This document shows, in pieces, positions 3,292-35,715 of a stretch of 44,408 bases of DNA. The stretch is from a virus: the IMG/VR virus record IMGVR_UViG_3300025592_000024. One strand, 5' to 3'. Below the pieces are notes generated by a model. That model worked only from the letters and a program-made list of their open reading frames with translations. It was not told the origin of the DNA and did not search any database. Every line of letters starts with the position of its first letter. Positions within the stretch are counted from its first letter, which is position 1. A program made the translations under genes and the position numbers.

Positions 3292-3458
3292 ATTTCCCGG
3301 AAATAAATAATACAGAAGATATGGATAAAGAAGTATCAGTATCACAGTGGGATTTGATAGCAGTAGCAGAAACATTCCAACGTAAAGGATTTTACTTTGG
3401 TATATTCTCTGGACTTGGATTAGTTGGATTATTCACATTAATTAGGAGTTTGATATAA
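3288..3458 (+). CDS. 56-aa membrane protein (not in ORF track)
   Basis: ATGA and TAATG overlaps with both neighbours; C-terminal hydrophobic GFYFGIFSGLGLVGLFTLI. Confidence 0.65.
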   Translation: MNFPEINNTEDMDKEVSVSQWDLIAVAETFQRKGFYFGIFSGLGLVGLFTLIRSLI

Positions 3459-4095: not shown

Positions 4096-4273
4096 CGGTA
4101 CACATTATATAAATTGCTATAATCAAAAAACAGAAAAGCGTGAGATGTACGAAGTACCTTATGATGTATCCGTTTATGTTAAACAATTGGAAATGAAAAT
4201 AAAATATCCTGACAATTCAAAATTAACAAGGTTGTTTCCAGAATTAAAAGAGAGAGATTATGATGGTTATTAG
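4082..4273 (+). CDS. hypothetical protein
   Basis: 63-aa ORF overlapping the upstream gene end. Confidence 0.6.
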   Translation: MKKSNGTHYINCYNQKTEKREMYEVPYDVSVYVKQLEMKIKYPDNSKLTRLFPELKERDYDGY

Positions 4274-4296
4274 AGATGAAATAAAGGAGAAACAAA

Positions 4297-4740
4297 ATGG
4301 AAAATAGAGAAATGTTGTATGATAAAGATGCAAAATGTGATAACTGTGGAAAATTAGGTGCACATGATTTCATGGGGGATTACTTTTGTAAATTCTGTGC
4401 GTGTCTATCTTACACAGAACCAGATGATACAATACCAAAAGTAGGACTTGATGCTTACACTGAACTTGGTGAATCACACGAAGCCCACGTAAGACAAATT
4501 AAAAAATTAGAAGAAGAGTTAATTTTCTACAAACGTATAGATTGTGAAGGAATAGATTTAACGGATGGCAAGGGTAAAATTATGTATCTCGAAGAATCTC
4601 AGCACAGTGACCCATTGTTTTATAAACAAGACATATTAGAATTAATCAAGTGGATTCAAGATACTCAAAGTGAGATGGACTTGGGAATCAAATCTGCGAA
4701 GGAAATATTAAAGGAGTATTATGCAGACAGTAGCGATTGA
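4297..4740 (+). CDS. hypothetical protein with N-terminal Cys cluster (CDNC...CKFC)
   Basis: AAGGAG RBS; two CxxC pairs. Confidence 0.7.
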   Translation: MENREMLYDKDAKCDNCGKLGAHDFMGDYFCKFCACLSYTEPDDTIPKVGLDAYTELGESHEAHVRQIKKLEEELIFYKRIDCEGIDLTDGKGKIMYLEESQHSDPLFYKQDILELIKWIQDTQSEMDLGIKSAKEILKEYYADSSD

Positions 4741-18611: not shown

Positions 18612-19046
18612 ATGGGAGCAAGAGAAAAAGATTTAAATCCAGATGTATCCATTGGTCTGAGTTTACCAATGGGATATTCCAACACTGGTCATTTTACTCA
18701 AACAAATACAACTCTTGAACAGGCAAAACACAATATAGTAAATTTATTGAAAACTATGAAGGGTGAAAGGGTGGGTCAACCAGAATTTGGTTCAAGATTA
18801 AATGAAGTTATTTTTGAACCAATGGATGAGAATTTAAATGATAAATTAGAGGAGGCAATTAGAGAATCTATGGAACAATGGCTTCCATATGTAAATATTA
18901 AAAAACTTAAAGTGGAACTTCCAGATTACGGAAGAAATACAGTAAATATATCAATAGACTTTGGATTATCATTCGAACCTGGAATGTCTGCACAAGTGTC
19001 TATAAGTTTTGAGCAATTTGAATCATATAGTGAATTAGCACAGTGA
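18612..19046 (+). CDS. baseplate wedge protein, gp25/GPW-like
   Basis: NIVNLLKTMKGERVGQPEFGSRL...EQWLPYV signature. Confidence 0.9.
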   Translation: MGAREKDLNPDVSIGLSLPMGYSNTGHFTQTNTTLEQAKHNIVNLLKTMKGERVGQPEFGSRLNEVIFEPMDENLNDKLEEAIRESMEQWLPYVNIKKLKVELPDYGRNTVNISIDFGLSFEPGMSAQVSISFEQFESYSELAQ

Positions 19047-19066: not shown

Positions 19067-20995
19067 ATGGCTAAACATGGACTTAGCAGAGATGTAAAAT
19101 ATTTAAATAAAGATTTTAGTAGTTTCAGGAATGGGTTAATGGAATATGCACAGACCTATTTCCCAAACACATATAATGATTTTAATGAAGCAGACCCTGG
19201 GATGATGTTTATAGAAATGGCATCATATGTTGGAGACGTTTTATCATATTATATTGATGAACAATTTAAAGAAAGTTTATTATCATTTGCAGAAGAAAAG
19301 AAAACAATTTATGAAATAGTTCAAGGATATGGATATAAGCCCAAATTATCATCTCCATCTTCGGTAACACTTGACGTGTTCCAAACCGTTCCATCAGATC
19401 CAAATAATGTAGTAGATGGAAAACGGCAACCAAATGAAGATTATTGTCTTAATGTATCCAACGGATTACAAGCAACTTCAACAAATGGCACGGTATTTAG
19501 AAGTGTGGATGATGTAATTTTTAGAAATTCAAGTTCAATGAGTCCACGACAAGAAGACATATTTGAAGTGGATGATAGTGGTAACATTACAAAGTGGTTA
19601 CTTAAAAAATCAGCAAAGGCTGTAAGTGGAACGGTTTCTACTGAATATATTACATTTGGTTCTGCTGAAAAATATAAAAGAGTAGTTTTACAAAACACTC
19701 CAATTTTAGAAATAATTTCAGTAACGGATAGTGATGGAAACAAATGGTATGAAGTCCCATTTTTAGCACAAGATACTGTATATGCAGACTTTGAAAACAC
19801 TTCAAAGAATTCACCAGATTTAGTGAATGGTAGAAATTTTGCACCATTTTTATTGAAACTTGTAAAAACTTCAAAGAGATTTAAAACTTACATTAGAACA
19901 GACGAAAAAACCGAATTAAGGTTCGGCTCAGGAGTAGCTTCTGGAGCAGATGAAGAAATAATACCAAACCCAAATAACGTTGGGTCTAGTCTACCAGGAA
20001 CTCCAAGTTTTCTTGATACTTCATTTGATCCAGCAAACTTTTTAAATACAGATACGTATGGTCAAGTTCCAACAAATACTACATTAACAATAAAATATAG
20101 TTACGGTGGTGGTATTAGTGATAATGTCGCATCAAACGGAATAAATAACATTTCATTGATAAGTTCAGAGTTTGATAATTCTTTAACATTAGATGCGAGT
20201 TTAAAAACAAGTACTCAAAATTCTATAGCAGTTACTAACCCAAACCCAGCAACAGGTGGTAGTAGTGGTGAAACAATAGAAAATGTACGAACTAATGCAC
20301 TTGCATATTTTCAAGCTCAAGGTCGTGCAGTAACCAAGGATGATTATATAACTCGTGTATATTCATTACCATCAAAATATGGCAATATATCTAAAGTTTA
20401 TATGATCCAAGATGAACAAGTTTCTGCAACAGGTCAAAATGAGTCAGATACAACATTTCAACCAAACCCATTAGCATTAAATATGTATATGTTGGGATAT
20501 AATCAAAGTAAAAAATTAGTCGGACTAAATACTGCAGTAAAAGAAAATGTAAAAATTTATTTAAGTCAATATAGAATGATGACAGATGCAGTTCAATTAA
20601 AAGATGCTTGGGTAATAAATATAGGATTGCAATTTGCAATTTATACAAAAAAAGGATTTAATAAAAATGAAGTATTGTTGAAGTGTGTAGATTCACTAAA
20701 AACATATTTTAATATAGATAGGTGGCAAATAAATCAACCAATTATTCTATCAGGAATAGCTTCAGAGTTATTAAAAGTTGATGGTGTAGCTACAATAGTT
20801 AAACCTCTTGAAAATAGAGATGAGTTGGTTATAGTAGAAAACAAATGGGGAACATCTTCTGGATATTCAGATAATATTTATGATATTCAAAGTGCGACAT
20901 TTAATGGGACAGTTTACCCATCGGTTGATCCAGCAATTTTTGAAATTAAATTCCCAGATACAGATATTAGGGGAAGAGTATTGGGAGATATATAA
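19067..20995 (+). CDS. baseplate wedge protein, T4 gp6 / baseplate J-like
   Basis: KDFSSFRNGL..YFP..YNDF..DPGMMFIEMASYVGDVLSYY; GGSSGETIENVR; RAVTKDDY. Confidence 0.88.
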   Translation: MAKHGLSRDVKYLNKDFSSFRNGLMEYAQTYFPNTYNDFNEADPGMMFIEMASYVGDVLSYYIDEQFKESLLSFAEEKKTIYEIVQGYGYKPKLSSPSSVTLDVFQTVPSDPNNVVDGKRQPNEDYCLNVSNGLQATSTNGTVFRSVDDVIFRNSSSMSPRQEDIFEVDDSGNITKWLLKKSAKAVSGTVSTEYITFGSAEKYKRVVLQNTPILEIISVTDSDGNKWYEVPFLAQDTVYADFENTSKNSPDLVNGRNFAPFLLKLVKTSKRFKTYIRTDEKTELRFGSGVASGADEEIIPNPNNVGSSLPGTPSFLDTSFDPANFLNTDTYGQVPTNTTLTIKYSYGGGISDNVASNGINNISLISSEFDNSLTLDASLKTSTQNSIAVTNPNPATGGSSGETIENVRTNALAYFQAQGRAVTKDDYITRVYSLPSKYGNISKVYMIQDEQVSATGQNESDTTFQPNPLALNMYMLGYNQSKKLVGLNTAVKENVKIYLSQYRMMTDAVQLKDAWVINIGLQFAIYTKKGFNKNEVLLKCVDSLKTYFNIDRWQINQPIILSGIASELLKVDGVATIVKPLENRDELVIVENKWGTSSGYSDNIYDIQSATFNGTVYPSVDPAIFEIKFPDTDIRGRVLGDI

Positions 20996-22114: not shown

Positions 22115-22417
22115 ATGCCATATAACAAAGAAGAATTAAAGGTTAATGATTTCTATCAAGAAATTACAAGACGCGATGAAGCAAAATATATAGAAGTTAT
22201 TCAAAAGAGAACCACCACCGGAAATCTAACAGATGGAATTTTAAGAGATTCAACATCAGGAAATATAATTTTATTTGAAAAGATAACCCCAGGACAGGGA
22301 ACCGATGGATCAGGTCATCCAGAAAATAATAAGATTACTTGGTCTCATGGTTATTTTGATTATGATGAAAATGAAGATTTAAATAAAATAATAGACAGAG
22401 AATTTACGGAACTATAA
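22115..22417 (+). CDS. hypothetical structural-cluster protein
   Basis: Start moved to ATG 22115, after the upstream stop. Confidence 0.65.
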   Translation: MPYNKEELKVNDFYQEITRRDEAKYIEVIQKRTTTGNLTDGILRDSTSGNIILFEKITPGQGTDGSGHPENNKITWSHGYFDYDENEDLNKIIDREFTEL

Positions 22418-25400
22418 TGCCAAGAAAAAAACAATTAACATTAGATAATGTAACTGGAAAATTATCAAGATTAAATTCTGAAAATCTTCCTTTGATAAGT
22501 ATTTCTGGATTAGATGTTGGAGACGAACCTATACCATTTGGTGAATCACCAACTGATGTTATAGAATTTCATTTATATGATACATCAGACAATTATATAG
22601 CATCAGGAAAACTTCCACATCCGCTTCCACCAAAGTTGGATGTTGGTTCTCATGTTAGAAGTCTTGGATATGAAAGGGGAACTTATAAAATAGTTTATAA
22701 TTTTTTACGAGAACTTGGTGGCAGTGATAAGTTTATTTTGGTTTATAAAAATGATAGAAGTATTTATCAGTCAGATGACCCACATTGGGTAGATACAAAT
22801 GGTAAAATATATGCTGGAACTGTAGAAGAACCATTAAAAGATGAAAATAATAATTTTATAGAACTTCTCATACAAGAAGATAAATTTTGGTTACAAGAAA
22901 TATCACCTTCAAGAACAGAAATTAGATTACGACCAAATCCTGGAATAAATGATCCAGATTTTCACGAACAATTTAGGTTAATATGTTATACTTGTTTAGC
23001 GTATTCAATCGTAAATGGTACTTCATATTTAACATTTGACGATACTGGAAAAGTTGTAACTTTACATAGTCCAGGTGATATTCAATTAAATAATTCCATG
23101 GTAGGTGGAACTCTTAAAATTAGAAATGCATTTGTTATAGACAAGGACGAGAGTGCCGAAGTAATATCAAAATATACTCCTGTAATAGAAAATGAAACAT
23201 TACCTATATCTGAAAATTTAGTTTCCAATGGGAACTTTTTTGATGGAAATGATATTACTGAAAAATCGTTAATATCAAATAATCACACGATAGAAAAATT
23301 TTCTAATCCAGGTAATAGTGCATGGACATTAAAAACAACATCTAATGGATCTGATAACAAGTATGAAGTTATTGTAAAGGGAATATCAAATGAAACTTAT
23401 ATATTGAGTTGTTGGGTGTATTGGAGTGATGATTGGACATCCAACAGAGAATTATTTTCTGGAAAAATCAATAAGGGAGACTCCGAGGTTAATATCTCTT
23501 CAATTGAAAATGCAGGTGGAACATTTGAAACTAAAATTATAAGTGGAAATGAATGGAAGCGTGAATATAAAACTATAACTATTCCAGAAAATTCCGATGG
23601 TACTATAAAATGGCTTTTAGGAAAAACCACTGTAACAGAAACAGGAATTAGGTATATTACAAATGTTCAAGTTGAACCAGGAAGTGTTTCTGGAACTCCA
23701 AGTCCATATATGGTCAGTTCAAGACAAGAAGAAATGGATAGCCAAACAACTGGTACAATTTCTTTTATAGATGATAATAAGTTATATGCAGAAATATCGA
23801 ATGAAGATGCTGGATTTATATCCCTTATGGGAGAGGGTGGTAGTAGAGGAAGTGGTAAAATTATCATTAAGGATGCTTTCGTAGTAGATGAAAATTTTAG
23901 CGAAGTCACTGAAATCAAAGTTGTGGATGACATTTCAATAAAAAATTCTAATGCCACTCAAATAACTAATTATGAAGGAGAATTTAGAAAATCTAAATAC
24001 CACGGTGATTTTCCAGATATAGGGAATTCTACAATAAAAGTGTGGATACAAGCGGACCATGAATTTATACTTTATAAAGTAGATTCAAACGGCAATGAAA
24101 GTCAATTGGGATCACATAATAACTGGAGACAAAGTAAGGATTTCAGCACAGCAGATTTTTCACTGTCAGATAAGCTCAGATTGGTTACAAAAAATATTTC
24201 CGGTGCTGCAGCATTTTTAGCAAAAATAACATATAAGGGAACGGAATATAAAACTGGTGATGTTGACGGTGATTATGTAATAGATACAGAATCTGAATCT
24301 AATTTATCTACCACTTCACCTGGAGTGTGGAAAATTATTGAAGCTGATGGTTCTACTTCTAATTTACCTGGGTGGAAGTCACTCGGACTCGCAAATAGCA
24401 GTGGTACTTGGGGGAGTAATAATGACCCAGAATTGGAAGAATGTGAATGGATTTGGAATAATGGAAATAGAAAAAATAATTTAGTTTGGGAGTGGACACC
24501 CACATTCAACATAACAGATGAAATTTGGAAAGCTTGGGATCCCGCATTACATAAAGATGCAGTACAGGTTGAAAATTGGTCATATGGATTTAATTGGTTC
24601 GATTGGGGTGGGAGTGTTGATATACAAAATAGTAGATCAAGATGGCACAGTGGTTGGTTAGGATATCACGCTAAATGGGTACAAGGTGAAGGACAATATG
24701 GTGATACTGTAATGAAATTCATCGATAAAAATTCTCAATTTGATGCTCCAAATCATACAAGTTATGATGGTCCATTTAAAACGGGACTTAATACAGTTGA
24801 AAGTCAACCAATGGGTCTTGCACATAGATGGTTGGGTATAGCCCAAACATTGCCATATGAAATGGCATCACAAGGAATTAGTGTTGGTGATAACATTACA
24901 ATAACCTGGTGGCAAAAATCCGATACCATTAAAAAAGGTGCAATGGTTGGATTGTTACATCATAGAAAAAGTGAAGTTGGTCAATATTGGGGATCTAATA
25001 TTGGAAATCATCCATCAACTTTAGAGGAAGGTAGTCATCACGCATGGCAACGAGAATTTCAAAGGTATATTCCAGTTTCCAATACTGATGAATGGGAACA
25101 GGTAAGTTATACGGCAGAAGTAGAAGAAGATTGGGATTTAACGAAACCAACATCTTTATATGTATATGGTCACTATGGTCCAGAAGGAATACTTTGGGTA
25201 GAAAATGTACAAATACAAAGAACTGTAATATCAACCACTATTGATAAAATTCCTGTTACGGAGGACTTGGTTGCAGAAATTGAAACCATAATAGATAAAA
25301 ATACTATTATTTTAAAAGATACTTATGAGAATTTAGCACCCAATGGTTCAGTTTTTGATAATTCTACAAACATTCGTCCTTGGAATGAATTTACAGAATT

Positions 25401-28400
25401 TAGTGTAGATTATACATCATCACTTTATTCAGTAGAACCTACCTTTGGAACACTACGGGGTGATATTGCTGGAATAAGTGGAAATACTATTACGTTATTA
25501 AATTCATATGAAGAACTTGGAAATGAAGCTGGTCATGATTTTGATTCGTATTCATTATATGATATGCAATCTATAAATGATGAAAATTCAAATGGGTTTG
25601 AAAAGTGGTTTATAAATAGTCCAAGGGATACCGAAGAAGATTTAAGTAAACTTATAAAATTTGGCCCTAATAATTTTAGTTTGATAACTAATTTTAAATT
25701 GGATACGATTACATATCCAGAATATCCACACTCAGCTGTATATAAATTATATGAACCGTTACAGGGTGACATAAAAGATCAAGATTTTTGTAGTGTGGTA
25801 AAGGAAATGATACCACCTATTGAAGAAACTTGTACTCTCATTCCTTTTATTGAAGAAGAAATAAGTGATATAGTTCTTCGTACACCAGAACCTGGAAATG
25901 TTAATAGTCCCATTGGAACAGGAAAAACAGAATATAAAGGATATGATTCATTAACAACAACAGATTCTTCTATAAAAGAAAGTTTAGAAAATGAACTTTT
26001 GAGTGGAAGTTTAAGTATAGATATCAATATTGATCATTTTTTATTCGATAATTTCATACATTTTGGTTCAGCAGAAAAACGAGTCCGGAATTTTAAATAT
26101 AAATTAGATTTAATCGAAATGTATTCAGATAGAAGTGCGTCTCTTTCTGGAACATTAAGTGGAACTGGTTATCTCCCACTTTCAGGGTCATCATCATATA
26201 ATCCAGGATTATCTCCGATTAGTGGTTCTACAACTCAAATTGCATGGTGGGAAAGAAAGCGTCGTGAAACTATAAATACGTTTGATAAATTTGAAAACTA
26301 TATGTATAACAAAAGTTCATCTTATTCAAGTAGTTCCATTGGAATACAACACGACAATGCATGGCCGAAACTATCTGGAACTGGGACTTATTCCGACCCG
26401 TATATAAATTACAGAGTTACACAATCTGTAGCTGTTGATTGGTATAATAATCAAATAATTTCATCATCTGTATATGATAAACAAAATATGAATAGATTAA
26501 GAGTTAATCTTCCAACATTTGTCCAAGATGATTCTGAAAATGACTTATTCTTAAACTTTATAGATATGATTGGTCATTATTTTGATGACATTTGGGCATT
26601 CGTAAAGTCAATGACCGATGTTCATGATAGACGAGATGGTGTAGATAGTGGTTTAGCAAGAGATTTATTAAAACCTGTTGCACAATCACTTGGTTGGGAA
26701 GTTTATGATGGAAAAGATTTAGTTTCCATACCACGATACATTTTGGGAATGGAGCAAACTGGTTCAGAAACTCCATGGCAATTTAGCGGAACATCAGATA
26801 GAGATATATCCAGAGAAATATGGAGTCGTATAATAAACAATATGCCATATTTCCTAAAAACAAAAGGGACCTCCAGAGCAATTAATGGTCTGATAAGTTG
26901 TTATGGTATTCCATCTTCTATTTTACGTGTTGTGGAATATGGTGGACCAAAACTACCAGGACAATCTGCAGAATCGTTTTTAACAAGAAAATTTACAAAA
27001 GCATTAAATTTCTTCGGAGCAACAAATAACACTTATGTTCAAAATGATACTTGGCAAGCAGTTACACAAGGAGATGGAGCAACAAGTAGACGACCAGACA
27101 CAATAGAATTTAGATTTAAAGCTGTAACGGGTTCTAATCAAGTATTAGTTAGACGAGGAACAGATTGGTCTATTGGACTTAAAGACAATGGCTCATCAGA
27201 TCAATATGGATATGTTAATTTTAAATTAAGTGGCAGTAGAGGGTACAATGAAATAACATCATCAGCACTACCAGTATATGATGGAGAGTTTTATTCGGTA
27301 ATGTTAACCAGAACTTCTGCATCTGGAACTCATTTAAGTGATGATGATACAAGTCAGGATGTAGTTTATACATTATACACTAAAAAATACGATGTAGGTA
27401 GAAGTAAAATATATTTAGAATCCACAAGTGAAATGACAGTAAGTGGTTCATTAGGAGCTGTTTCACAATCATATAATACTTCATATAATGGAGGTGGAAA
27501 TACAATTACAATAGGTGGTCCAGAAAGTGTTGATTTCGGTGAATCATTTAGTGGTTCTATGATGGAATATAGAAATTGGACTACACCACTATTAGAATCG
27601 TCATTTGATAATCATGTGACAGCTCCAATATCATTTGATGGAAACCACCCATCCGCATCTTATACAGATTTAGTCACACGTTATTCATTCGATGATGACA
27701 AAGATTTGAGTGTTGGAGTAAATCAATGGTTTCAAGATGCAAGTGCAGACCAATCATTCACTTCATCTGCAGTTCCATATAATTTTACAAGTGGACTTAA
27801 AGATCACTTCTCATCAGTAGTTGATGAAACTAAAATGAAAGTTCCAAATCTTGGTCCATCTCGTAGATCATCTACAAAAATTAGAATAGAAGATGATGTT
27901 AGAAATGATAAGATAGGAAACCCAATATTAAAATTCGGTGAAAGTATTACAACACCGGCTTATGACAATGCTCCAATTGATTCTAACAAACTTGGAATAT
28001 ACTTTTCACCATCTGCTCCAATTGATGAAGATATTATATTATCAATGCCAGACCTTGATTTCGACCAATATATTGGAGATCCACGTGACCAGTACAAAGA
28101 ACAATATACCGGACTTGTGGAGGCACGAAATTTATATTGGCAGAAATATAGTGGACCAAATAACTTCTGGGATTATTTAAGATTATTAAAATATTATGAT
28201 AGTTCATTATATAAACAAGTAAAAAGTTTAATTCCAGCAAGAGCAAATGCAAATGTTGGAATTATGATAGAACCAACTGTATTGGAAAGGGATAAAATAA
28301 TTATTGGTAAGAAACCAATACTTGAGACAGCACACCACACAACATTTATTGACACCATGGCATATATTTCAGAGAGCTCGGAGTATCCTAATTATGATGC

Positions 28401-29184
28401 AAATATAAATTATAGTAATCCATTCAAAGTATCCTCAAAAACAAATAAAACGGGGTCATATATTTCAGCGTCATCAGAATATGTTCCATTAGAAACAAAC
28501 ATGAATTATTCAAATCCATTTAATGTTAATTTTCATACAAATGAAACGGGTTCTTATATTTCAGCATCCGCTATACATGAAGATTTTACTTCAAATGTAA
28601 ATTTATATGATCCATTTAAATTAAATTATAAAACACAAGAAACCGGTTCAAGTGTAGTGTTTTCTGCAGACCTTGTATCATATAACGCACCAAGTCATAC
28701 TTTTTCAGAAGTAGCATCAGGAACAGGGTCATATGTAGGAAAGGATATATTAGAAATGCCAGCTTTATATGGAATAGGGGATAGAGATGAAAGTGGATGG
28801 TACGGAAGTGATTATTATAATGCCACAATCCAATTAGGAAGTCAAAAATCAATTTTTGAAGAAGTAGTTATGCCAAGAATTGAAACGAATGTTACATCAT
28901 ATTTTAATTCTGAAGTTGAGTATCATTATTCATCTTCATTAAGTGCATCATTACATAATCCATATTCATCAAGTTTTGTATTATCTGATTTAGATAATAA
29001 GTGGGATGAATCCTTGGGTACTGATAGACTATTTTATCTTGGGTGTGTTCAAACTAACGATACAACAGTTTCAGATAATGGAAGTAGATATGAAGATAAA
29101 TCAGCGGCAGTAGAAATAACAATAACAAGTCCAACAAAACTTGTAACAACAGACTCACCATCTACCCCACTTAACGTTAAATAA
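22417..29184 (+). CDS. 2255-aa baseplate/virion protein with CBM-like, lectin-like and LamG-like domains and a phage tail-protein-like segment
   Basis: ENLVSNGNF..VQVE and WVENVQIQ CBM-like ends; TIEFRFKA..SMMEYRNW LamG-like region; FIDMIGHYFD..W..V and YFLKTKGT wedge-like motifs. Confidence 0.7.
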   Translation: MPRKKQLTLDNVTGKLSRLNSENLPLISISGLDVGDEPIPFGESPTDVIEFHLYDTSDNYIASGKLPHPLPPKLDVGSHVRSLGYERGTYKIVYNFLRELGGSDKFILVYKNDRSIYQSDDPHWVDTNGKIYAGTVEEPLKDENNNFIELLIQEDKFWLQEISPSRTEIRLRPNPGINDPDFHEQFRLICYTCLAYSIVNGTSYLTFDDTGKVVTLHSPGDIQLNNSMVGGTLKIRNAFVIDKDESAEVISKYTPVIENETLPISENLVSNGNFFDGNDITEKSLISNNHTIEKFSNPGNSAWTLKTTSNGSDNKYEVIVKGISNETYILSCWVYWSDDWTSNRELFSGKINKGDSEVNISSIENAGGTFETKIISGNEWKREYKTITIPENSDGTIKWLLGKTTVTETGIRYITNVQVEPGSVSGTPSPYMVSSRQEEMDSQTTGTISFIDDNKLYAEISNEDAGFISLMGEGGSRGSGKIIIKDAFVVDENFSEVTEIKVVDDISIKNSNATQITNYEGEFRKSKYHGDFPDIGNSTIKVWIQADHEFILYKVDSNGNESQLGSHNNWRQSKDFSTADFSLSDKLRLVTKNISGAAAFLAKITYKGTEYKTGDVDGDYVIDTESESNLSTTSPGVWKIIEADGSTSNLPGWKSLGLANSSGTWGSNNDPELEECEWIWNNGNRKNNLVWEWTPTFNITDEIWKAWDPALHKDAVQVENWSYGFNWFDWGGSVDIQNSRSRWHSGWLGYHAKWVQGEGQYGDTVMKFIDKNSQFDAPNHTSYDGPFKTGLNTVESQPMGLAHRWLGIAQTLPYEMASQGISVGDNITITWWQKSDTIKKGAMVGLLHHRKSEVGQYWGSNIGNHPSTLEEGSHHAWQREFQRYIPVSNTDEWEQVSYTAEVEEDWDLTKPTSLYVYGHYGPEGILWVENVQIQRTVISTTIDKIPVTEDLVAEIETIIDKNTIILKDTYENLAPNGSVFDNSTNIRPWNEFTEFSVDYTSSLYSVEPTFGTLRGDIAGISGNTITLLNSYEELGNEAGHDFDSYSLYDMQSINDENSNGFEKWFINSPRDTEEDLSKLIKFGPNNFSLITNFKLDTITYPEYPHSAVYKLYEPLQGDIKDQDFCSVVKEMIPPIEETCTLIPFIEEEISDIVLRTPEPGNVNSPIGTGKTEYKGYDSLTTTDSSIKESLENELLSGSLSIDINIDHFLFDNFIHFGSAEKRVRNFKYKLDLIEMYSDRSASLSGTLSGTGYLPLSGSSSYNPGLSPISGSTTQIAWWERKRRETINTFDKFENYMYNKSSSYSSSSIGIQHDNAWPKLSGTGTYSDPYINYRVTQSVAVDWYNNQIISSSVYDKQNMNRLRVNLPTFVQDDSENDLFLNFIDMIGHYFDDIWAFVKSMTDVHDRRDGVDSGLARDLLKPVAQSLGWEVYDGKDLVSIPRYILGMEQTGSETPWQFSGTSDRDISREIWSRIINNMPYFLKTKGTSRAINGLISCYGIPSSILRVVEYGGPKLPGQSAESFLTRKFTKALNFFGATNNTYVQNDTWQAVTQGDGATSRRPDTIEFRFKAVTGSNQVLVRRGTDWSIGLKDNGSSDQYGYVNFKLSGSRGYNEITSSALPVYDGEFYSVMLTRTSASGTHLSDDDTSQDVVYTLYTKKYDVGRSKIYLESTSEMTVSGSLGAVSQSYNTSYNGGGNTITIGGPESVDFGESFSGSMMEYRNWTTPLLESSFDNHVTAPISFDGNHPSASYTDLVTRYSFDDDKDLSVGVNQWFQDASADQSFTSSAVPYNFTSGLKDHFSSVVDETKMKVPNLGPSRRSSTKIRIEDDVRNDKIGNPILKFGESITTPAYDNAPIDSNKLGIYFSPSAPIDEDIILSMPDLDFDQYIGDPRDQYKEQYTGLVEARNLYWQKYSGPNNFWDYLRLLKYYDSSLYKQVKSLIPARANANVGIMIEPTVLERDKIIIGKKPILETAHHTTFIDTMAYISESSEYPNYDANINYSNPFKVSSKTNKTGSYISASSEYVPLETNMNYSNPFNVNFHTNETGSYISASAIHEDFTSNVNLYDPFKLNYKTQETGSSVVFSADLVSYNAPSHTFSEVASGTGSYVGKDILEMPALYGIGDRDESGWYGSDYYNATIQLGSQKSIFEEVVMPRIETNVTSYFNSEVEYHYSSSLSASLHNPYSSSFVLSDLDNKWDESLGTDRLFYLGCVQTNDTTVSDNGSRYEDKSAAVEITITSPTKLVTTDSPSTPLNVK
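28402..28689 (+). repeat. three tandem 32-aa (96-nt) repeats in the 2255-aa protein
   Basis: NINYSNPF..TNKTGSYISAS / NMNYSNPF..TNETGSYISAS / NVNLYDPF..TQETGSSVVFS starting at 28402, 28498 and 28594. Confidence 0.85.
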
Positions 29185-29287: not shown

Positions 29288-30100
29288 ATGGGATATCTAA
29301 ATAATACAACACGAACATTAGACGCTATTTTGACAAAAAAGGGTAGAGAACTTTTGTCAACTGGTGGAAATTTTACAGTCAGTAAATTTGCATTGGGAGA
29401 TGATGAAATAGATTATGATCTATGGGATACAACACATACAAGGGGAACGGATTATTACGGAGCTGTAATAGAAAATCTACCAGCACTAGAACCATTTAAC
29501 GATCCATCTGAAATTATGAAATATAAACTGGTATCAAGATCCGATGGTACTCGGGCGATGGCAAAGTTGGTTGAAACCAATAACACAAGCACTCAATTAT
29601 CTGGAACAAATAGTGCATTAGTTTGGGAGACAACAGAAAATGATTTCAATAGGGCGCTTGTTGTTGGTGAACCGACATTAGAAAAATTTGGTGCTCCAGG
29701 AGTTGCAATATCAATTCAACATAAAGATAATTCTAACTATGGCGCTGTCGATCAAAACTTGTATTCAGGAGAAAGTTATACTATTACTTTGTTAGACTCA
29801 TCTATTGCTTTATTAGCTCCAGATTATCAAACTGTGAAAGAAGGTGTTATGGTTGAAAAATCAAATAATACATCATTAGATTCATTGTGGCTACCATTTG
29901 TGAATAATGTTCAGCATATATCTCAAACTATTTCTGGAACAGTAATAGGTAGTGGTGGTAATTTGAGAAAATCAGGGTTGGCAGCACCAATAATGATTTA
30001 TCCAAAACGAATTTCACAACAAACTAAAACTTCAATAGTAATTACAGGTGAAAGTTCTGGGGCAGTAATAGAGTTTGATGTTACTGTTCGTAAATCATAA
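29288..30100 (+). CDS. virion structural protein, paralog N1 (ILTKKGRE..FALGDDEIDY family)
   Basis: Shared N-terminal module; ATATTTAT box at 29209. Confidence 0.75.
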   Translation: MGYLNNTTRTLDAILTKKGRELLSTGGNFTVSKFALGDDEIDYDLWDTTHTRGTDYYGAVIENLPALEPFNDPSEIMKYKLVSRSDGTRAMAKLVETNNTSTQLSGTNSALVWETTENDFNRALVVGEPTLEKFGAPGVAISIQHKDNSNYGAVDQNLYSGESYTITLLDSSIALLAPDYQTVKEGVMVEKSNNTSLDSLWLPFVNNVQHISQTISGTVIGSGGNLRKSGLAAPIMIYPKRISQQTKTSIVITGESSGAVIEFDVTVRKS

Positions 30101-30123
30101 AATAATAACACGAAGGAAAATAA

Positions 30124-30819
30124 ATGGGATTTATAAATAATACTTCGTACATACTAAATGCGGTATTAACTAAAAAAGGTAGAGAATATCTATCAAAAAG
30201 TGATGGTAAGTTTAATATATCAAAGTTTGCATTAGCAGACGATGAAATAGATTATACATTATGGGATACAGCACACCCAAGGGGGACAGATTATTACGGT
30301 GCGGTATTGGAAAGTACTCCAATGATAGAACCAGTTGTTGATCCAGAAGTGGTAATGAAATATAAGTTAATTACACTTCCAATAGGAACAACAGCTTTAC
30401 CATATATTAGTAACATAACTCCTCCAACTGGTTTAACAGGTGTGAATGCATTAAATACAGAATATAATGGAAATACAATTCCGAAATGGTCAATGAGTGA
30501 CCACGTTTTAAATCCAAGTACGGTAGGAGCAGATGGAGCATTTTCCAATGAAAAATATAGTTTTTTAGTATTGAATAAAAATGTAATTGATATTGGAACA
30601 GGACAAGGTGAAAATGTAAATTATGATATTGGAGCGGTTTATAATGAAGAAAGTGGTAGATTGAGTAAAAAGGTAGTTTCAAGAGTATCAACAATAAAAT
30701 CTCAAATGCTTACATCTAATAGAGAAACTTCAATAATTATAACAGGACAAATGTCAGGGGCAATTTATGTTCTTCCAATAGAAGTAAAATATGTGGATAA
30801 TACTTCAGGTGGTGTATAA
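30124..30819 (+). CDS. virion structural protein, paralog N2
   Basis: LNAVLTKKGREYL..ISKFALADDEIDY; C-terminal TSIIITGQMSGA matches N1 TSIVITGESSGA. Confidence 0.75.
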   Translation: MGFINNTSYILNAVLTKKGREYLSKSDGKFNISKFALADDEIDYTLWDTAHPRGTDYYGAVLESTPMIEPVVDPEVVMKYKLITLPIGTTALPYISNITPPTGLTGVNALNTEYNGNTIPKWSMSDHVLNPSTVGADGAFSNEKYSFLVLNKNVIDIGTGQGENVNYDIGAVYNEESGRLSKKVVSRVSTIKSQMLTSNRETSIIITGQMSGAIYVLPIEVKYVDNTSGGV

Positions 30820-31121
30820 TGGGATTTATAAATAAAACAACTTTAGTTTTAGATGCAGTATTGACTAAACGTGGAATTGATTATCTACGGTCTGCTGTTT
30901 TTGGTGAAAATCAAAATAGAGAACACATTATTACTAAATTTGCATTAGGTGATGATGAAGTGGATTATGGTTTATGGGATGTTACCCCAAGTGGTTCTAA
31001 TTTTGTAAAACCATATGGTCAAGTAATAGACAATCAACCAGTATTCGAACCTATAATTACAAATACTGAAATTATGAATTCTTTTATTTTTAAAAATAGA
31101 ATTGAAGAGAGTAATAAATAA
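30819..31121 (+). CDS. virion structural protein, paralog N3 (N-terminal module only)
   Basis: LDAVLTKRG..ITKFALGDDEVDY; 100 aa. Confidence 0.7.
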   Translation: MGFINKTTLVLDAVLTKRGIDYLRSAVFGENQNREHIITKFALGDDEVDYGLWDVTPSGSNFVKPYGQVIDNQPVFEPIITNTEIMNSFIFKNRIEESNK

Positions 31122-31375
31122 TGTTAAGTGCAAAACAAGTTGGTAAAGATGGTATTGGAAAAGAAAAAACTTTGTTTAGTAGTGGAGTTAGATTAAAAGG
31201 AAAGGAAATTTCAACTACAAAGTTTACAACACTAAAAGTAACAGGAATGAATACTGGAGCAACTCGGACATTAGATGTAATGGTTAAACCTGGTGGTGGA
31301 GTATATTTTACTCCACCAGCAGAAGAATATACTCCACAATTACCAACTGCAAATTTTTCATTCAATATAATATAG
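31121..31375 (+). CDS. small structural-cluster protein ending in a PKD-like strand
   Basis: TAATG coupling; ends LPTANFSFNII. Confidence 0.6.
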   Translation: MLSAKQVGKDGIGKEKTLFSSGVRLKGKEISTTKFTTLKVTGMNTGATRTLDVMVKPGGGVYFTPPAEEYTPQLPTANFSFNII

Positions 31376-31384
31376 GAAATAATA

Positions 31385-31921
31385 GTGGGATATTTAGATA
31401 AAACATCTCTAACAGTAACTGCAAATTTTACAAAACGTGGAAGAGAAGTTTTGGCCGATTGTATTTCTGGTGATGGGGAAGTAGATTTATCATATATCAT
31501 TACTAAATTTGCATTAGGAGATGATGAAATAGATTATGGATTATGGGATGAAACTCAATCTTCAAATTTAAAGGGAAGAATAATAGATAATATGCCCATG
31601 GTAGAATCATTTATAAATCAAAAAGAAATTATGAATTCGTTTATAGTAGATCCACCACCTACTGGATATGGACCAACATTGTCAAATTTACAAGACCAAA
31701 TAGAATTAACTGGAGTCGGTGATATAATAGATATTTTACCGACAACGGATAATTATGATGATACAGAAGTATATGAGTTTTTCTTAGAACATGATAACTT
31801 ATTTGAAATGTACGTTCCTTGGAACGCACCAACATCAGATTTTAGTTGGTCAGTAAATTCGGATGGAAGTGATATAAATTTACCACCTATTTCAGGATTT
31901 ACTTGGTCAATAGGATTTTAA
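31385..31921 (+). CDS. virion structural protein, paralog N4
   Basis: GTG start with AGGA RBS; ANFTKRGREVL..ITKFALGDDEIDY. Confidence 0.75.
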   Translation: MGYLDKTSLTVTANFTKRGREVLADCISGDGEVDLSYIITKFALGDDEIDYGLWDETQSSNLKGRIIDNMPMVESFINQKEIMNSFIVDPPPTGYGPTLSNLQDQIELTGVGDIIDILPTTDNYDDTEVYEFFLEHDNLFEMYVPWNAPTSDFSWSVNSDGSDINLPPISGFTWSIGF

Positions 31922-31937
31922 CCAGAGGAGAATAAAA

Positions 31938-32447
31938 ATGTCAGTACAGTCAATACAACAGGGAACAGCACCGTTAACAATAAATTTTAATGATACTTCC
32001 ATCGGTGATGGGTTAACATATTTTTGGGATTTTGGAGATGGTAATTCATCCACGGATAAAAATCCTACTCATACTTTTATAAACGGTGGAGTATATTCTG
32101 TTTCATTAGCTGTAAGTAATGATAATGGAAGTGATATTAAATCGGTTCCAATAGTAGTTGCATCTGGTGGAAACACAGGTGGAGTTGGTGGAAACACAGG
32201 TGGAATTGGTGGAAACACAGGTGGAGTTGGTGGAAACAAAGGTGGAGTTGGTGGAAACAAAGGTGGAGTTGGTGGAAACACAGGTGGAGTTGGTGGAAAC
32301 ACAGGTGGAGTTGGTGGAAACAAAGGTGGAGTTGGTGGAAACACAGGTGGAGTTGGTGGAAACAAAGGTGGAGTTGGTGGAAACACAGGTGGAGTTGGTG
32401 GAAACAAAGGTGGAGTTGGTGATTCTAGTGGATTTAAACTTAAATAA
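31938..32447 (+). CDS. PKD-domain protein with Gly-rich heptad tail
   Basis: GAGGAG RBS; GTAPLTINF, YFWDFGDG, NPTHTF..GVYSVSL. Confidence 0.85.
   Translation: MSVQSIQQGTAPLTINFNDTSIGDGLTYFWDFGDGNSSTDKNPTHTFINGGVYSVSLAVSNDNGSDIKSVPIVVASGGNTGGVGGNTGGIGGNTGGVGGNKGGVGGNKGGVGGNTGGVGGNTGGVGGNKGGVGGNTGGVGGNKGGVGGNTGGVGGNKGGVGDSSGFKLK
32166..32417 (+). repeat. 12 x 21-nt tandem repeat encoding GGN(T/K)GG(V/I)
   Basis: Unit GGTGGAAAC(ACA/AAA)GGTGGAGTT counted directly; unit 2 ends ATT. Confidence 0.95.
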
Positions 32448-32489
32448 TTTAATAACAATATATTTATAGATATATTAAGGAGATAAACA

Positions 32490-33533
32490 ATGAGTGAAGT
32501 AAGTAACTTCTTTACTATTTTAGAAAATAGTGATAAAAGAACAAACATACCAAGTACTATTTCATCACCAGTATGGTCTGGTGGTGCTGCTACTCTAACA
32601 TCATTTTATACCGGATCAACTCAAAGTGGTAGTAGTGGTGATTATTATTATGATGTATATGATAAAGCTGGAAGTGATTCTACACGACAGGTACAATTTG
32701 CTGTGTCTTATGGACACATCGAAGGAAGTGGATCATTATCTACATCTGCCGGTAACAATCCAACAAAGGCAATTTATCGTCAAGTTAGAAACATTTGTAT
32801 TAAAAATGCGTCAAGTGAAACACGATTCAATTTTAATGCTGATGGTGATGGTACATCTTATGAAGCAGCTGATGTATTTGCGATTGGTGTAAACAGAGCA
32901 AGATATAGAGAAAAAATAGATCCAGGTAACTGGGAACTACATTTGACTAAAGGTGGAAATACTTTAAAATTAATTGACGATAGTGGTGCAACTTCTGATT
33001 CAACAGTTAACGCATCTCAACGAGTATTCAACATAGTTAGTGGTTCAATAAGTGGTGGTACTGCAACAATAAAAACGACAGCAGTTGCCCAATCAGCAAC
33101 TAATGGTTCATTTGGATATTTTTATCCAGAACTCGGTATTATTGTATTGAATGCATACGCGTTAAATCAAGATTCACTCGCAATTACACTGACAAGATCA
33201 ACTGCCACAAACGATAATACTGCATACGAATTAGTATCATCTATTAGTACAGGAGCAAAATTCCAAGCACGTAGAGAAGAACAAATTAAATCTTCTCATT
33301 ACTTTTGTAGAGTTAGATCTGATGAATATAACTGGAGTCAAAATCCAACATATTACACAGGGTCAAATGCAGAATTGAGAAATCCTACATTTATTCAAGA
33401 TCCAAAATCTTATATCACTACGGTTGGTCTTTACAATGATAACAATGAACTTTTAGCAGTAGCTAAATTAAGTCAACCATTACTAAAATCAAGAGATAGA
33501 GAAGCTGTAATAAAAGTTAGATTGGACTTTTAA
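32490..33533 (+). CDS. virion structural protein, paralog C1 (YITTVGLYND..ELLAVAKLSQP family)
   Basis: RARYREKIDPGNWEL; C-terminal motif; ATATTTAT box at 32460. Confidence 0.75.
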   Translation: MSEVSNFFTILENSDKRTNIPSTISSPVWSGGAATLTSFYTGSTQSGSSGDYYYDVYDKAGSDSTRQVQFAVSYGHIEGSGSLSTSAGNNPTKAIYRQVRNICIKNASSETRFNFNADGDGTSYEAADVFAIGVNRARYREKIDPGNWELHLTKGGNTLKLIDDSGATSDSTVNASQRVFNIVSGSISGGTATIKTTAVAQSATNGSFGYFYPELGIIVLNAYALNQDSLAITLTRSTATNDNTAYELVSSISTGAKFQARREEQIKSSHYFCRVRSDEYNWSQNPTYYTGSNAELRNPTFIQDPKSYITTVGLYNDNNELLAVAKLSQPLLKSRDREAVIKVRLDF

Positions 33534-33544
33534 GGAGAACTTAA

Positions 33545-34570
33545 ATGTCATTTAAAGTTTTTGATTCTAAAGATAAATTGGAAAATATGGTCAGTACGGT
33601 TGCTGAACCAATGTGGTCAAGTGCAGTAGGAACATTAACCACGTTTTTTACTGGATCAGTACAATCATCCAATACTGGAAAATACTATTATGACGTACAT
33701 TCGTCAGATGATCAAACAACGGATGTTCAGTTTGCTGTATCGTATGGTCATAGATTAGGTTCCGGTTCAGAAGGTGGAACTGCTACTGGAGAAACAAATC
33801 CTACTAAAGCAATATACTCTCAATTTAGACAAGTTTTACTTCCAGCAGAAACAACTAAATTTAATTTTCATGGGGATTCTGGTACAAATTATTATAGTGA
33901 TGATGTTCTAACTGTAGTAGCAAATCGTGCACGATATAGAGAAAAGATGGATCCAGGTAATTGGGAATTACATTTAACAAGTGGTAGTAATACTATTAAA
34001 CTCATCGATGACAGTGGAGCTTCTTCAAACTCGAATGTAGGAGATGCTCAAAGAGAATTTTGGGTAGTATCTGGTTCAATTGCAAACGGAGTTCATACAA
34101 CTGCAACTTCAACAGCAACATCCACAACTTCAGGTTCATATGGATTATTTTATCCTGAAACGGGTATAATTTTATTAAATCCAAGTTCTTTATCTTCTGG
34201 ACTTAGTGATAGAGTTATGCATACAATGGGAAGTAGTGCTTCTACAAATGACTTAAATCATAGAAAGCTATTCACTTCTATAAAAAGTGGATCATATTTT
34301 GCATCACGACGAGAAGAACGTAAACGAAGTTCATTTTACTTCTGTAGAGTACAAAATACTGAATTTAATCACAGTCAAAATCCGTCATATTTCACAGGAT
34401 CTAATGCTACCCTCGTAAATAATTCATTCATTACCGAACCAACTTCATATATTACAACTGTTGGTTTATATAATGATAAGAATGAACTTCTTGCAGTTGC
34501 TAAATTATCTCAGCCTTTCAAAAAAGACCAAAATACCGAAGCACTTATCAAAGTACGACTTGATTTTTAA
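33545..34570 (+). CDS. virion structural protein, paralog C2
   Basis: Full-length similarity to C1 (RARYREKMDPGNWEL, YITTVGLYNDKNELLAVAKLSQP). Confidence 0.75.
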   Translation: MSFKVFDSKDKLENMVSTVAEPMWSSAVGTLTTFFTGSVQSSNTGKYYYDVHSSDDQTTDVQFAVSYGHRLGSGSEGGTATGETNPTKAIYSQFRQVLLPAETTKFNFHGDSGTNYYSDDVLTVVANRARYREKMDPGNWELHLTSGSNTIKLIDDSGASSNSNVGDAQREFWVVSGSIANGVHTTATSTATSTTSGSYGLFYPETGIILLNPSSLSSGLSDRVMHTMGSSASTNDLNHRKLFTSIKSGSYFASRREERKRSSFYFCRVQNTEFNHSQNPSYFTGSNATLVNNSFITEPTSYITTVGLYNDKNELLAVAKLSQPFKKDQNTEALIKVRLDF

Positions 34571-34581
34571 GGGAGATCCCA

Positions 34582-35715
34582 ATGTTTAAGGATATATCTC
34601 CAGACGATAGATCAATAAAAGAATTCAAAACTTATAAAAAATTCACCTTCACGCAAACAGATAGTGGAAGTGGTGTTTATGGAATAGAAGGTGTGAGTGG
34701 TAGTTTTCACAATTTCCTAACGGGATCAGCTGCATCTCAAAGTTATGGTGTATTTAATCAAGATTCTCAAAGTGTAGGTAAAGATTGGAAAACTTGGTAT
34801 AGTGATGGAACTTTTTTTAAGATTCCATTATATTATTCATTAAATCATCTATATTATCAATACGATAAAACTTCAAATCCAAAATCAAATACTACAAGAT
34901 TCCCAATTTATACTGTCACTGATTGGAGTAGAAAATGGCCACATGGCAGAGAAAGTTGGGGTTCAATAAATCCACGACAACTTCATAATAAATTTAATGT
35001 TATAACAATTCCACAAGAATACTATGGCGAAGAAATAAAACCACACTCCGTAAAGATATTAGATGATAGTGGAGACACCACTTTAGATTTAAGAGATGAT
35101 GGAAACGGACAACTCTACGATTACCAGTATTCAGCAAGTTTTGCCGCTGGAACTCCTGGTGGAAGTCCTTTAACTGGAAGTTGCGTGGGAAATGTATTTT
35201 ACGAACATGGACTTATCACAATTACAGATACAGGTTCTCTATATATTTCTGCAAGTATTGGTAGTGGTTCATCACCGTCTGGACAATATGATGGAACTGA
35301 TGGATTTACTGTTACATTTCAAGCAACAAAAACTTCATATGAATATGAATATGTTTGTCATGTTCCAGAATTTGAATTTACTGGTACTACAAATCCAAGT
35401 GCAGTTAATGGACGAAGTGGAAGTATTTATGTCCCACAGGGTGCAAAATATATTTACGATGGAAACCTTCAAAATCCACAATATGAAAATACTATTGATT
35501 TAGTAATGCCACCAGCAAGTAGTTCATATAATTTATCATACGATTCTGGAACACATTATCAGAATTTCACAACCCATTCAGAATTTGGGACTTATATTAC
35601 TAATATAGGTCTTTATAATGATGCAAATGAATTAATGGTTATAGCAAAATTATCAAATCCAATTAAAAACGATAAAGAATTGCCACTTTCATTTTTAATT
35701 AGATTTGATTCTTAA
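34582..35715 (+). CDS. virion structural protein, paralog C3 (divergent)
   Basis: YITNIGLYNDANELMVIAKLSNPIK..IRFD. Confidence 0.75.
   Translation: MFKDISPDDRSIKEFKTYKKFTFTQTDSGSGVYGIEGVSGSFHNFLTGSAASQSYGVFNQDSQSVGKDWKTWYSDGTFFKIPLYYSLNHLYYQYDKTSNPKSNTTRFPIYTVTDWSRKWPHGRESWGSINPRQLHNKFNVITIPQEYYGEEIKPHSVKILDDSGDTTLDLRDDGNGQLYDYQYSASFAAGTPGGSPLTGSCVGNVFYEHGLITITDTGSLYISASIGSGSSPSGQYDGTDGFTVTFQATKTSYEYEYVCHVPEFEFTGTTNPSAVNGRSGSIYVPQGAKYIYDGNLQNPQYENTIDLVMPPASSSYNLSYDSGTHYQNFTTHSEFGTYITNIGLYNDANELMVIAKLSNPIKNDKELPLSFLIRFDS

Follow-up and report, generated by a model that had tools for sequence, protein, structure and literature searches.

The interval 29288–35715 of the window, by which we mean the whole 44,408-nucleotide stretch of viral DNA analysed here (IMGVR_UViG_3300025592_000024), appears to encode an enlarged repertoire of peripheral baseplate proteins, which belong to two families shared by a large group of myoviruses, most of them aquatic. 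Each family bears the sequence signature of one part only of PF12571 (Phage_tail_fib), the N-terminal adaptor domain of P2 gpH, as judged by hhalign and reciprocal HMM searches. The N and C parts probably join across separate proteins. We tentatively propose, at a little short of an even chance, that the N and C chains co-assemble into an adaptor-like unit that would tie the variable domains to the scaffold of the baseplate. The original prediction, in which the domain is divided between separate polypeptides, is partly supported.

The ORF calls in this interval, all on the + strand, include four proteins (A, B, C, and D) with a common conserved N-terminal segment of ~90 residues, hereafter the N segment, and three proteins (F, G, and H) with a common conserved C-terminal segment. 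Protein A (29288–30100, 270 aa) carries the N segment at residues 1–89 ahead of a variable C-terminal part, and has orthologues in the related loci L003–L013. In protein B (30124–30819, 231 aa), the N segment spans residues 1–90 and an Ig-like sandwich occupies residues 90–225, while protein C (30819–31121, 100 aa) is nearly the N segment alone and is short in every relative of the clade (100–144 aa). Protein D (31385–31921, 178 aa) starts with GTG and has the N segment at residues 1–94; it also gives a weak match to phrog_23632. Among the C-type proteins, F (32490–33533) has 347 aa with the PF12571-like segment at residues ~261–347 (nucleotides 33270–33530), G (33545–34570, 341 aa) is a recent paralogue of F with 57% identity, and H (34582–35715, 377 aa) is the orthologue of the second C-type gene in phages with one N-type and two C-type genes.

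Two accessory genes, C′ and E, which the original prediction did not include, come between members of the N-type and C-type sets. C′ (31121–31375, + strand, 84 aa) is a small conserved ORF kept in L003–L013, where it follows C in some relatives and E in others; its middle part is similar to the last strands of the Ig-like domain of A and B. E (31938–32447, + strand) consists of a PKD domain (PF18911, E 1e-17) followed by a Gly-rich (GGNTGGV)n region, which is encoded by ~12 copies of a 21-nt repeat (TRF array 32165–32421), and every relative encodes it as an ORF of its own.

The four N-half and three C-half genes described earlier are indeed present, and they form paralogue families in which the end segments are conserved above the remainder. 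The N segments are 40–64% identical, as compared to 26–31% for the remainders of the N-type proteins, and the last 45 residues of F, G, and H are 40–76% identical, as compared to 30–55% for the rest of these proteins. The alignment of the first ~90 residues of A–D contains 24 invariant columns, including T16, K17, G19, K33-F-A-L36, D38-D39-E40, and D42-Y43. The C-terminal block of F–H is marked by Y271, C273, V275, E279, N285-P286, S307-Y-I-T310, G313-L-Y-N-D317, N319-E-L321, A325-K-L-S328, and P330. The motif strings quoted for the two families are present in a slightly less ideal form: B reads ALAD, D reads FTK, and H reads YVCHV and ELMVIAKL. The gpH motifs given with them were correct, as PF12571 spans gpH residues 1–151 and these motifs are found there.

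How firm is the likeness to PF12571? We compared each family with a PF12571-type profile, built from 11 phage sequences rather than taken from the curated Pfam model, and both halves matched. The N segment aligned with the N-termini of the PF12571-type domains at positions 6–39 (hhalign probability 87.6%, E 3.5e-6), with N-type residues 10–40 covering this stretch and the alignment extending up to positions 6–72 in some relatives. The C-terminal 98 residues of the C-type proteins aligned at positions 85–127 (hhalign probability 90.6%, E 1.3e-6) through residues ~300–343. An HMM of the last 43 C-type residues placed 7 of the 11 PF12571-type domains higher than every one of 3,000 shuffled decoys (positions 88–116). 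When, reciprocally, the PF12571-type HMM was searched against the 2,933 ORFs of 85 loci at E ≤ 1, the match proved highly specific, with 114 C-type proteins, 23 N-type proteins, and nothing else; every N match fell in the first half of the model, every C match in the second.

We regard it as very improbable that this likeness is convergent or fortuitous and that the two families are unrelated, uncharacterised baseplate or fibre proteins. Such an explanation accords with the absence of any match above the Pfam or PHROGs thresholds for these proteins, and with the shortness of the aligned stretches (25–45 residues, below the Pfam threshold for every window protein). None of the nine proteins of the interval matches the curated PF12571 model at E ≤ 1 (gathering score, 23 bits), nor do any of 54 N-type relatives; among 67 C-type relatives, three match it, with a best E of 0.09, and PF12571 is the second most frequent family among them. 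We also found no solved structure to which PF12571 is detectably similar in sequence. However, a chance or convergent resemblance is at odds with the hhalign probabilities of 88–91%, with the 137 family matches in the correct model halves against none in ~2,600 other ORFs, with profile scores exceeding 3,000–4,500 shuffled decoys, and with a position in the gene order that is the same as that of gpH.

Among the closest known systems is the N-terminal adaptor of P2 gpH and the R-pyocin fibre; in P2, a long trimeric fibre begins with this domain as a single uninterrupted stretch of 150 residues. The first strand-helix-strand signature of PF12571 (positions 6–39) recurs in the N family, and the GLYDD..LIAVA hairpin with the next strand (positions 85–127) recurs in the C family. 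In the window, these signatures lie on different proteins, the second being C-terminal, behind ~260 other residues, and there is neither a long fibre shaft nor a protein that passes the Pfam model. A contiguous ~150-residue N-terminal PF12571 domain was found in neither family, each of which aligns to one part. Likewise, a search for N+C fusions came up empty in 81 loci, in database proteins of the N type (150) and the C type (120), and in two further searches limited to longer proteins.

We propose the following arrangement. The conserved ~90-residue segment of the N-type proteins is homologous to the first part of PF12571 (positions ~6–39, or up to 72), with a putative variable display domain behind it (Ig-like in B, while D is followed by the separate PKD protein). 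The C-type proteins carry variable N-terminal or inserted domains, and their conserved C-terminal strands are homologous to positions ~85–127. Through beta-sheet augmentation, the N segment and the C-terminal sandwich may then combine in a unit like the gpH adaptor, which would anchor the variable domains on the baseplate scaffold. The adaptor, a single chain in P2, would thereby be formed by two chains here. In P2, the gpH adaptor has been modelled on 8JOU as binding the gpI tail through beta-sheet interactions, and its anchoring by beta-sheet augmentation with the gpI tail is itself a proposal (10.64898/2026.09.14.750843).

The predicted structures bear on this arrangement in two ways. The N segment alone is not folded by AlphaFold2 (pLDDT 43–70, protein B model mce4a9d0fb879), while residues 90–225 of B in the same model form a confident Ig-like sandwich, with VIA Z scores of ~8 against Ig-like domains, T5 pb6 and Big_2 among them. 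The C-type protein F alone yields a confident fold (pLDDT 85.5, pTM 0.80, model mb857b3f4cefb), in which its own N-terminal strand joins the C-terminal strands to form a small beta-sandwich. The original prediction was to fall if each protein folded a complete domain alone; the C-type protein does fold as a monomer, but the N segment does not. The confident fold of F alone counts against the two-chain adaptor, as the C-type proteins possibly need no partner. The shortness of the PF12571 matches and their sub-threshold Pfam scores, the lack of a natural N+C fusion in the searches above, and the low Z scores of the structural matches given below also count against it.

Incomplete beta-sandwiches that are completed in trans have been described in Bas63 and GP4 (PMC12609058), A1002 (PMC13730344), and phage 812 (PMC13433997). 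In the rope-and-bead anchors, namely the Bas63/Sf14 collar-whisker, the GP4 fiber-tail-adaptor with Fiber-1 (8JOU), VP1, and the A1002 nozzle-rope with its fibre dimers, an incomplete small beta-sandwich is completed by a strand of another chain, and chains from these entries give the C-type sandwich its best structural matches. Since trans-completion is known in such phage fibre anchors, the two-chain idea is less exotic than it was first presented. The top match in the wide search was 9euf_b, a 176-residue 812 baseplate chain (Z 5.1, rmsd 4.3 Å, 77 residues), whose length suggests that it is the 812 arm segment. The other matches were the Bas63 connector 9mt4_K (Z 3.9, rmsd 2.7 Å, 66 residues, Foldseek probability 0.89), the Sf14 neck chain 9c39_K (Foldseek probability 0.85), and the GP4 fibre I chain 8jou_a (Z 3.4). 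The alignments begin only at bead residues ~30–50, leaving the N-terminal helix part of the beads unmatched, so that the C-type proteins lack this part. The N segment resembles the very part that is lacking.

These matches lend themselves to a different assembly, in which the N-type protein is a tether with an extended “rope” and C-type dimers are threaded beads, the rope strand completing each sandwich. The N-type layout, an unfoldable conserved 90-aa N-terminus followed by an Ig-like domain, fits the Bas63 collar protein, which has a rope extension and an Ig-like globule and bears two whisker dimers per rope (PMC12609058); it also fits the A1002 nozzle-rope, which has an Ig-like domain at the end of its extension (PMC13730344). 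That the N segment alone is unfolded agrees with threading of this kind but does not single it out. A1002 has two paralogous bead proteins, and a set of one N-type and two C-type genes, the usual count among the relatives, would correspond to one rope bearing two dimer kinds. Nevertheless, we consider this assembly unlikely. The bead-chain scores are weak (Z 3–5) and tied with those of generic Ig-like sandwiches of GH2 enzymes, and the similarity to the rope-and-bead anchors themselves (Z 3.2–3.9, Foldseek probability 0.85–0.89) comes without detectable sequence similarity. The N segment aligns to the initial strand-helix-strand of PF12571, a part of an adaptor domain and of no known rope. Moreover, the known beads have 107–176 residues (107–171 in the rope-and-bead assemblies, without inserted domains), whereas the C-type proteins have 341–377 residues with large inserts. 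The rope-and-bead assemblies are situated at the neck or on podophage tails, while the window genes lie beside myovirus baseplate genes.

The 812 baseplate chain 9euf_b has been described as gp8-like (PMC13433997), and a C-terminal likeness to T4 gp8 (baseplate wedge subunit, Pfam Phage-Gp8) can be seen by eye (..P I..R..D..E.I.I..F), which we treat as a lead only. A relationship to gp8 was not supported by sequence: hhalign gave probabilities of 0.1–0.4% against gp8 alone and a six-sequence gp8 profile, and the gp8 sequences scored below shuffled decoys. As to the fold, T4 gp8 is absent from the 50 matches listed in the wide structural search of the C-type model, which do include 9euf_b.

The module is not peculiar to the large marine phage of the window. 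Clustering gives over 6,700 groups for the C-type family (90% identity) and ~1,900 for the N-type family (50% identity). Their members, all annotated as hypothetical, derive both from marine and freshwater metagenomes and from cultured phages that infect Microcystis, Flavobacterium, or Rhodothermus. In 75 of 81 loci, the N and C genes are neighbours, with N first, and lie downstream of baseplate wedge genes. Thousands of metagenomic relatives have one N-type and two C-type genes, and the N:C gene ratios are 1:2 (usual), 2:2, 4:3 in the window, and 1:5 in Mel-JY01; their departure from 1:1 is a further point against the two-chain adaptor. The gene-count survey of relatives shows the 4+3 set as an expansion in one clade, that of the window, within which this number is fixed. 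The earlier claim that both halves were duplicated holds for this expansion, but the widespread ancestral state was already two families, with one N-type and two C-type genes. With four N-type and three C-type genes in place of one and two, the clade could probably display more host-binding modules.

The gene neighbourhood is that of a baseplate. The N and C genes come after those of a gp25-like wedge protein (18612–19046, + strand; PF04965, E 3.8e-13; phrog_261, phrog_43) and a gp6/gpJ-like wedge protein (19067–20995, + strand; phrog_6, phrog_219, phrog_10646 “baseplate wedge subunit”, E 1e-13 to 4e-19), plus three further ORFs. Similarly, in the P2 gene order W-J-I-H, gpH follows gpJ and gpI. 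A giant 2255-aa baseplate protein (22417–29184, + strand), without a Pfam or PHROG match, stands in the gene order where T4 has gp7 or phage 812 its arm scaffold, and this placement makes it a candidate scaffold to which the N and C proteins could attach. In nearly all related loci, the N-type gene is immediately preceded by a large ORF (~400–2,300 aa, mostly >1,000). Microcystis phage Mel-JY01 has the same synteny, and in Flavobacterium phage immuto a 403-aa gene stands between the giant gene and the N-type gene. Within the giant protein, three 32-aa tandem repeats (SYISASSEY..LE..NYSNPF.VN..TNETG; 28360–28647, + strand) may, speculatively, be docking sites. They occur in 2–6 copies only in the 4N+3C clade and are absent from the 1N+2C clades.

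The phage 812/A511 arm (scaffold gp117 and segment gp118) shows the same order of wedge, very large scaffold, and small proteins used repeatedly, although it has one small-protein family and the window has two. In phage 812, scaffold linkers join the arm-segment dimers into continuous sheets with no third protein (PMC13433997). By this precedent, the N and C segments could make no mutual contact, each being anchored to the giant scaffold or the wedge, and their similarity to the PF12571 ends would reflect the shared ancestry of short docking elements rather than a divided domain. The confident fold of F alone, the variable gene ratios, the gpI tail as the adaptor partner in P2 (10.64898/2026.09.14.750843), and the extra repeats, possibly added docking sites, are all consistent with separate docking. 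We nonetheless judge it quite unlikely, because it leaves unexplained why two families hold complementary, non-overlapping parts of one known domain and why they are adjacent, and because the repeat number (2–6) is not tied to the fixed gene number.

Returning to the two-chain adaptor, its stronger form, a gpH-type adaptor permanently divided throughout a very large, uncharacterised group of aquatic myoviruses, which reassembles in trans with free pairing of N and C chains (up to 4 × 3 in this clade), possibly on the 32-aa repeats, seems to us somewhat unlikely, and combinatorial N–C pairing is speculation. If pairing were free, interchangeable half-anchors would create a combinatorial host-recognition periphery. 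A true two-chain adaptor would show how environmental myoviruses swap and multiply their receptor-binding modules, and it would carry the rope-and-bead principle beyond necks and podophage tails to myovirus baseplates. The link to the gpH adaptor gives these families, so far annotated as hypothetical, a testable role: they would hold variable modules of Ig-like, PKD, or lectin-like type on the baseplate. The lectin-like variable domains occur in the C-type proteins of some relatives.

The locus at positions 29288-35715 carries two sets of related genes, all on the + strand. Four N-type proteins, A (29288-30100), B (30124-30819), C (30819-31121) and D (31385-31921), have in common an N-terminal stretch of ~90 residues (the N segment) with 24 invariant columns, which is 40-64% identical among them, as compared to 26-31% in the remainders. 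Three C-type proteins, F (32490-33533), G (33545-34570) and H (34582-35715), end in a common block (the C segment) with 40-76% identity, versus 30-55% in the remainders. These alignments confirm the four N-segment and three C-segment proteins of the original prediction, while its interpretation, a gpH-type domain split between separate polypeptides, is partly supported. Scanned against Pfam and PHROGs, the nine proteins of the locus gave a PKD domain in the accessory protein E and one weak PHROG (function unknown) for D, and nothing else.

Where does this locus lie? The window is AT-rich (about 31% G+C), with nearly all of its genes on the + strand. A gp25-like gene (18612-19046, +; PF04965, E 3.8e-13) is followed by a gp6/gpJ-like wedge gene (19067-20995, +), matching several “baseplate wedge subunit” PHROGs, then two ORFs without assignment and a giant ORF of 2255 aa (22417-29184, +). 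The tblastn matches of protein F are confined to large myoviruses: Microcystis phage Mel-JY01, Flavobacterium phage immuto, Rhodothermus phage RM378 and an uncultured 484-kb phage. Mel-JY01 and immuto share the order of the window, from the wedge genes through the giant protein and the ~210-aa and ~340-aa proteins to the fibre/spike genes; immuto has an additional 403-aa gene between the giant and ~210-aa genes, and Mel-JY01, like the window, encodes a primase and a large AAA protein further downstream. The wedge genes and this synteny identify the window, on sequence grounds, as part of the baseplate module of a large myovirus. NCBI lists a hypothetical protein 99% identical to F (P0005) under “Candidatus Woesearchaeota archaeon”; most probably, phage DNA was assigned to the metagenome-assembled genome of an archaeon during binning.

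Next, we consider the relation to PF12571 (Phage_tail_fib), the N-terminal adaptor domain of P2 gpH and the R-pyocin fibre. The gpH motifs given in the original prediction are indeed present in the P2 gpH sequence, in which Pfam assigns residues 1-151 to PF12571. The Pfam model matches no window protein at E<=1; among the relatives, it weakly matches 3 of 67 C-type proteins (best E 0.09) and none of the N-type proteins. For profile comparison, we built an alignment of eleven diverse N-termini of the gpH type, drawn from phage genomes. The N segment matches this profile with a probability of 87.6% (E 3.5e-6), pairing residues 10-40 with positions 6-39. The full C-type alignment matches with a probability of 80% (residues 309-331 with positions 90-112), and its C-terminal 98 residues alone reach 90.6% at positions 85-127, while the C-type N-terminus has no similarity to the profile. 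An HMM built on the final 43 C-type residues scores 7 of the 11 gpH-type domains higher than any of 3,000 shuffled decoys, in each case at positions 88-116; with the N-segment HMM, three outscore all 4,500 decoys, at positions 3-37. In the reverse search, the gpH-type HMM was run over the complete set of 2,933 ORFs of at least 50 aa in 85 loci, and at E<=1 it retrieved 114 C-type ORFs (model positions 87-113), 23 N-type ORFs (5-37, or 6-72 in some) and zero others. The likeness is thus short yet specific, and falls in complementary parts of the domain. The proposed division between polypeptides holds in that each family matches one such part, but no window protein matches the Pfam model itself. 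Neither Pfam's criterion nor domain architecture places the N and C families within PF12571; nevertheless, the profile matches make remote homology to it quite likely, and the two families are probably remote relatives of its two parts. Searches of the PDB by sequence and by profile, using gpH together with the PF12571, N and C profiles, returned no relevant entry and yielded for comparison no solved structure detectably similar to PF12571 in sequence.

Each family was also examined by structure prediction. In the AF2 model of B (54-sequence alignment), the N segment is unfolded (pLDDT 43-70), with three short helices and no strands, and an Ig-like sandwich is confidently predicted for residues 90-225, which match Ig-like domains, among them that of T5 pb6, at Z about 8. 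In the model of F (67 sequences; pLDDT 85.5, pTM 0.80), the N-terminal strand 16-27 and the C-terminal strands 261-275, 307-315, 321-334 and 339-346 enclose the inserted domains. The C-type protein is therefore predicted to fold well alone, which counts against a domain shared between chains, but the same cannot be said of the N segment of B. ESM Atlas look-ups of both segments were uninformative. A Foldseek search of the PDB with the C-type model found nothing at E<=0.001, and only two high-probability rows, 9mt4_K (Bas63 connector, 0.89) and 9c39_K (Sf14 neck, 0.85). The best matches in a wide VIA search were 9euf_b (phage 812 baseplate; Z 5.1, rmsd 4.3 Å, 77 residues) and 8jou_a (GP4 fibre I; Z 3.4), and that in a second look was 9mt4_K (Z 3.9, rmsd 2.7 Å, 66 residues). 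These scores are low and level with generic sandwiches, so the likeness to bead proteins is a lead only. In all four, the C-type protein aligns only from bead residue ~30-50 onward. Against BFVD, Foldseek found uncharacterised relatives only, of which some carry lectin-like domains; gpH-type fibres were absent from the matches. Given the unfolded N segment and the Bas63 match, the N segment might be an extended rope bearing C-type dimers, as in the Bas63 collar protein; beside its specific match to the start of the gpH-type profile, we regard the rope as rather improbable.

The data fit a two-chain version of the gpH-type adaptor with a putative N-C interface. The N-type protein would provide the initial strand-helix-strand, plus more, and the C-type protein the later strands, while the variable parts (Ig-like, PKD-associated and, in relatives, lectin-like) would be displayed on the baseplate. 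For P2, a 2026 preprint proposes that the gpH adaptor binds the gpI C-terminal tail by β-sheet interactions, modelled on 8JOU (10.64898/2026.09.14.750843). In the source assemblies of all four structural matches, the incomplete sandwiches of small proteins are completed by a strand from another chain, and sandwich completion in trans is already a known principle (PMC12609058, PMC13730344, PMC13433997). The novelty lies in its likely use at the baseplate of a myovirus, with the signature of the gpH-type adaptor split over two abundant unannotated families and, in one clade, enlarged to 4+3. Against the two-chain adaptor, the N:C gene ratios differ from 1:1, and a fused N+C protein is absent from the material examined. 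Rosetta-stone searches found no fusion; two of them, limited to longer proteins, are weak as evidence because they depended on shared words.

Alternatively, the N and C segments could each dock independently on the giant scaffold. The giant protein contains three 32-aa tandem repeats, SYISASSEY..LE..NYSNPF.VN..TNETG, in a hypervariable stretch (28360-28647; aa 1982-2077), with 2-6 copies in the 4N+3C relatives and a short non-repetitive stretch instead in the 1N+2C clades. The repeats could be extra docking sites; their number does not equal that of the N or C genes (2-6 versus a fixed 4+3), and independent docking appears to us unlikely, slightly more so than the rope. The first ~250 residues of the giant protein (22417-23200) match a separate 260-448-aa ORF in outgroup contigs (L014:2894-3958, L049:2802-3584, L052:2473-3663 and L056:2776-4122), and the giant gene therefore looks, from these matches, like a fusion of two ancestral genes. 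A relationship with T4 gp8, suspected because of the gene order and a C-terminal resemblance by eye, was unsupported by hhalign and HMMER with a small gp8 profile.

How widespread are the two families? The C family comprises >6,700 database clusters at E<=0.001, and the N segment 1,904 clusters at 50% identity; the best 150 of the latter are 95-325 residues long, and nearly all start the segment at residue 1. Among 83 surveyed loci (80 viral contigs, two cultured relatives and the window), the commonest layout is one N-type gene with two C-type genes directly after it. Three contigs have 2 N + 2 C, and Mel-JY01 has one N-type protein and five with a terminal C segment, three of them 591-954 residues long. 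Four N-type genes occur in the window and eleven contigs (L003-L013), nine of which have all three C genes; L006 and L009 end inside the third and second C genes, respectively. The genes A to H keep their order throughout this clade; F and G stem from a recent duplication of the first C gene, and H corresponds to the second. Since 1 N + 2 C is widespread and 4+3 is confined to this clade, the predicted duplication of both halves stands as a clade-specific expansion, but the two-family module itself was already widespread. The A-type orthologue at L005:6702-7517 lacks the first ~55 N-segment residues in frame, which may reflect a frameshift, an assembly error or a pseudogene. The C segment also terminates far longer proteins of 552-954 aa (L066:10995-12653, L078:11026-12786 and, in Mel-JY01, L001:13048-19850), and two C-type relatives contain Laminin_G_3/ConA-like lectin domains (best E 4e-14); both observations support an anchor role for binding modules.

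The locus also contains two accessory genes. The small conserved ORF C′ (31121-31375, +) follows C in L003 and L009-L013, and E in L004-L008; as a separate ORF that shifts position among relatives, it is not part of a frameshifted C gene. E (31938-32447, +) encodes a PKD domain and then a Gly-rich tract, and is separate from D in 11 of 11 clade relatives, which rejects a single broken D + E gene. The central part of C′ is similar to the final strands of the Ig-like domain in A and B, and both C′ and D end in a PKD-like first-strand motif. In E, the (GGNTGGV)n tract behind the PKD domain is encoded by a 21-nt repeat in 12.2 copies (32165-32421, 96% matches), and the array also yields long spurious ORFs at 32158-32469 (+, another frame) and 32069-32548 (-).
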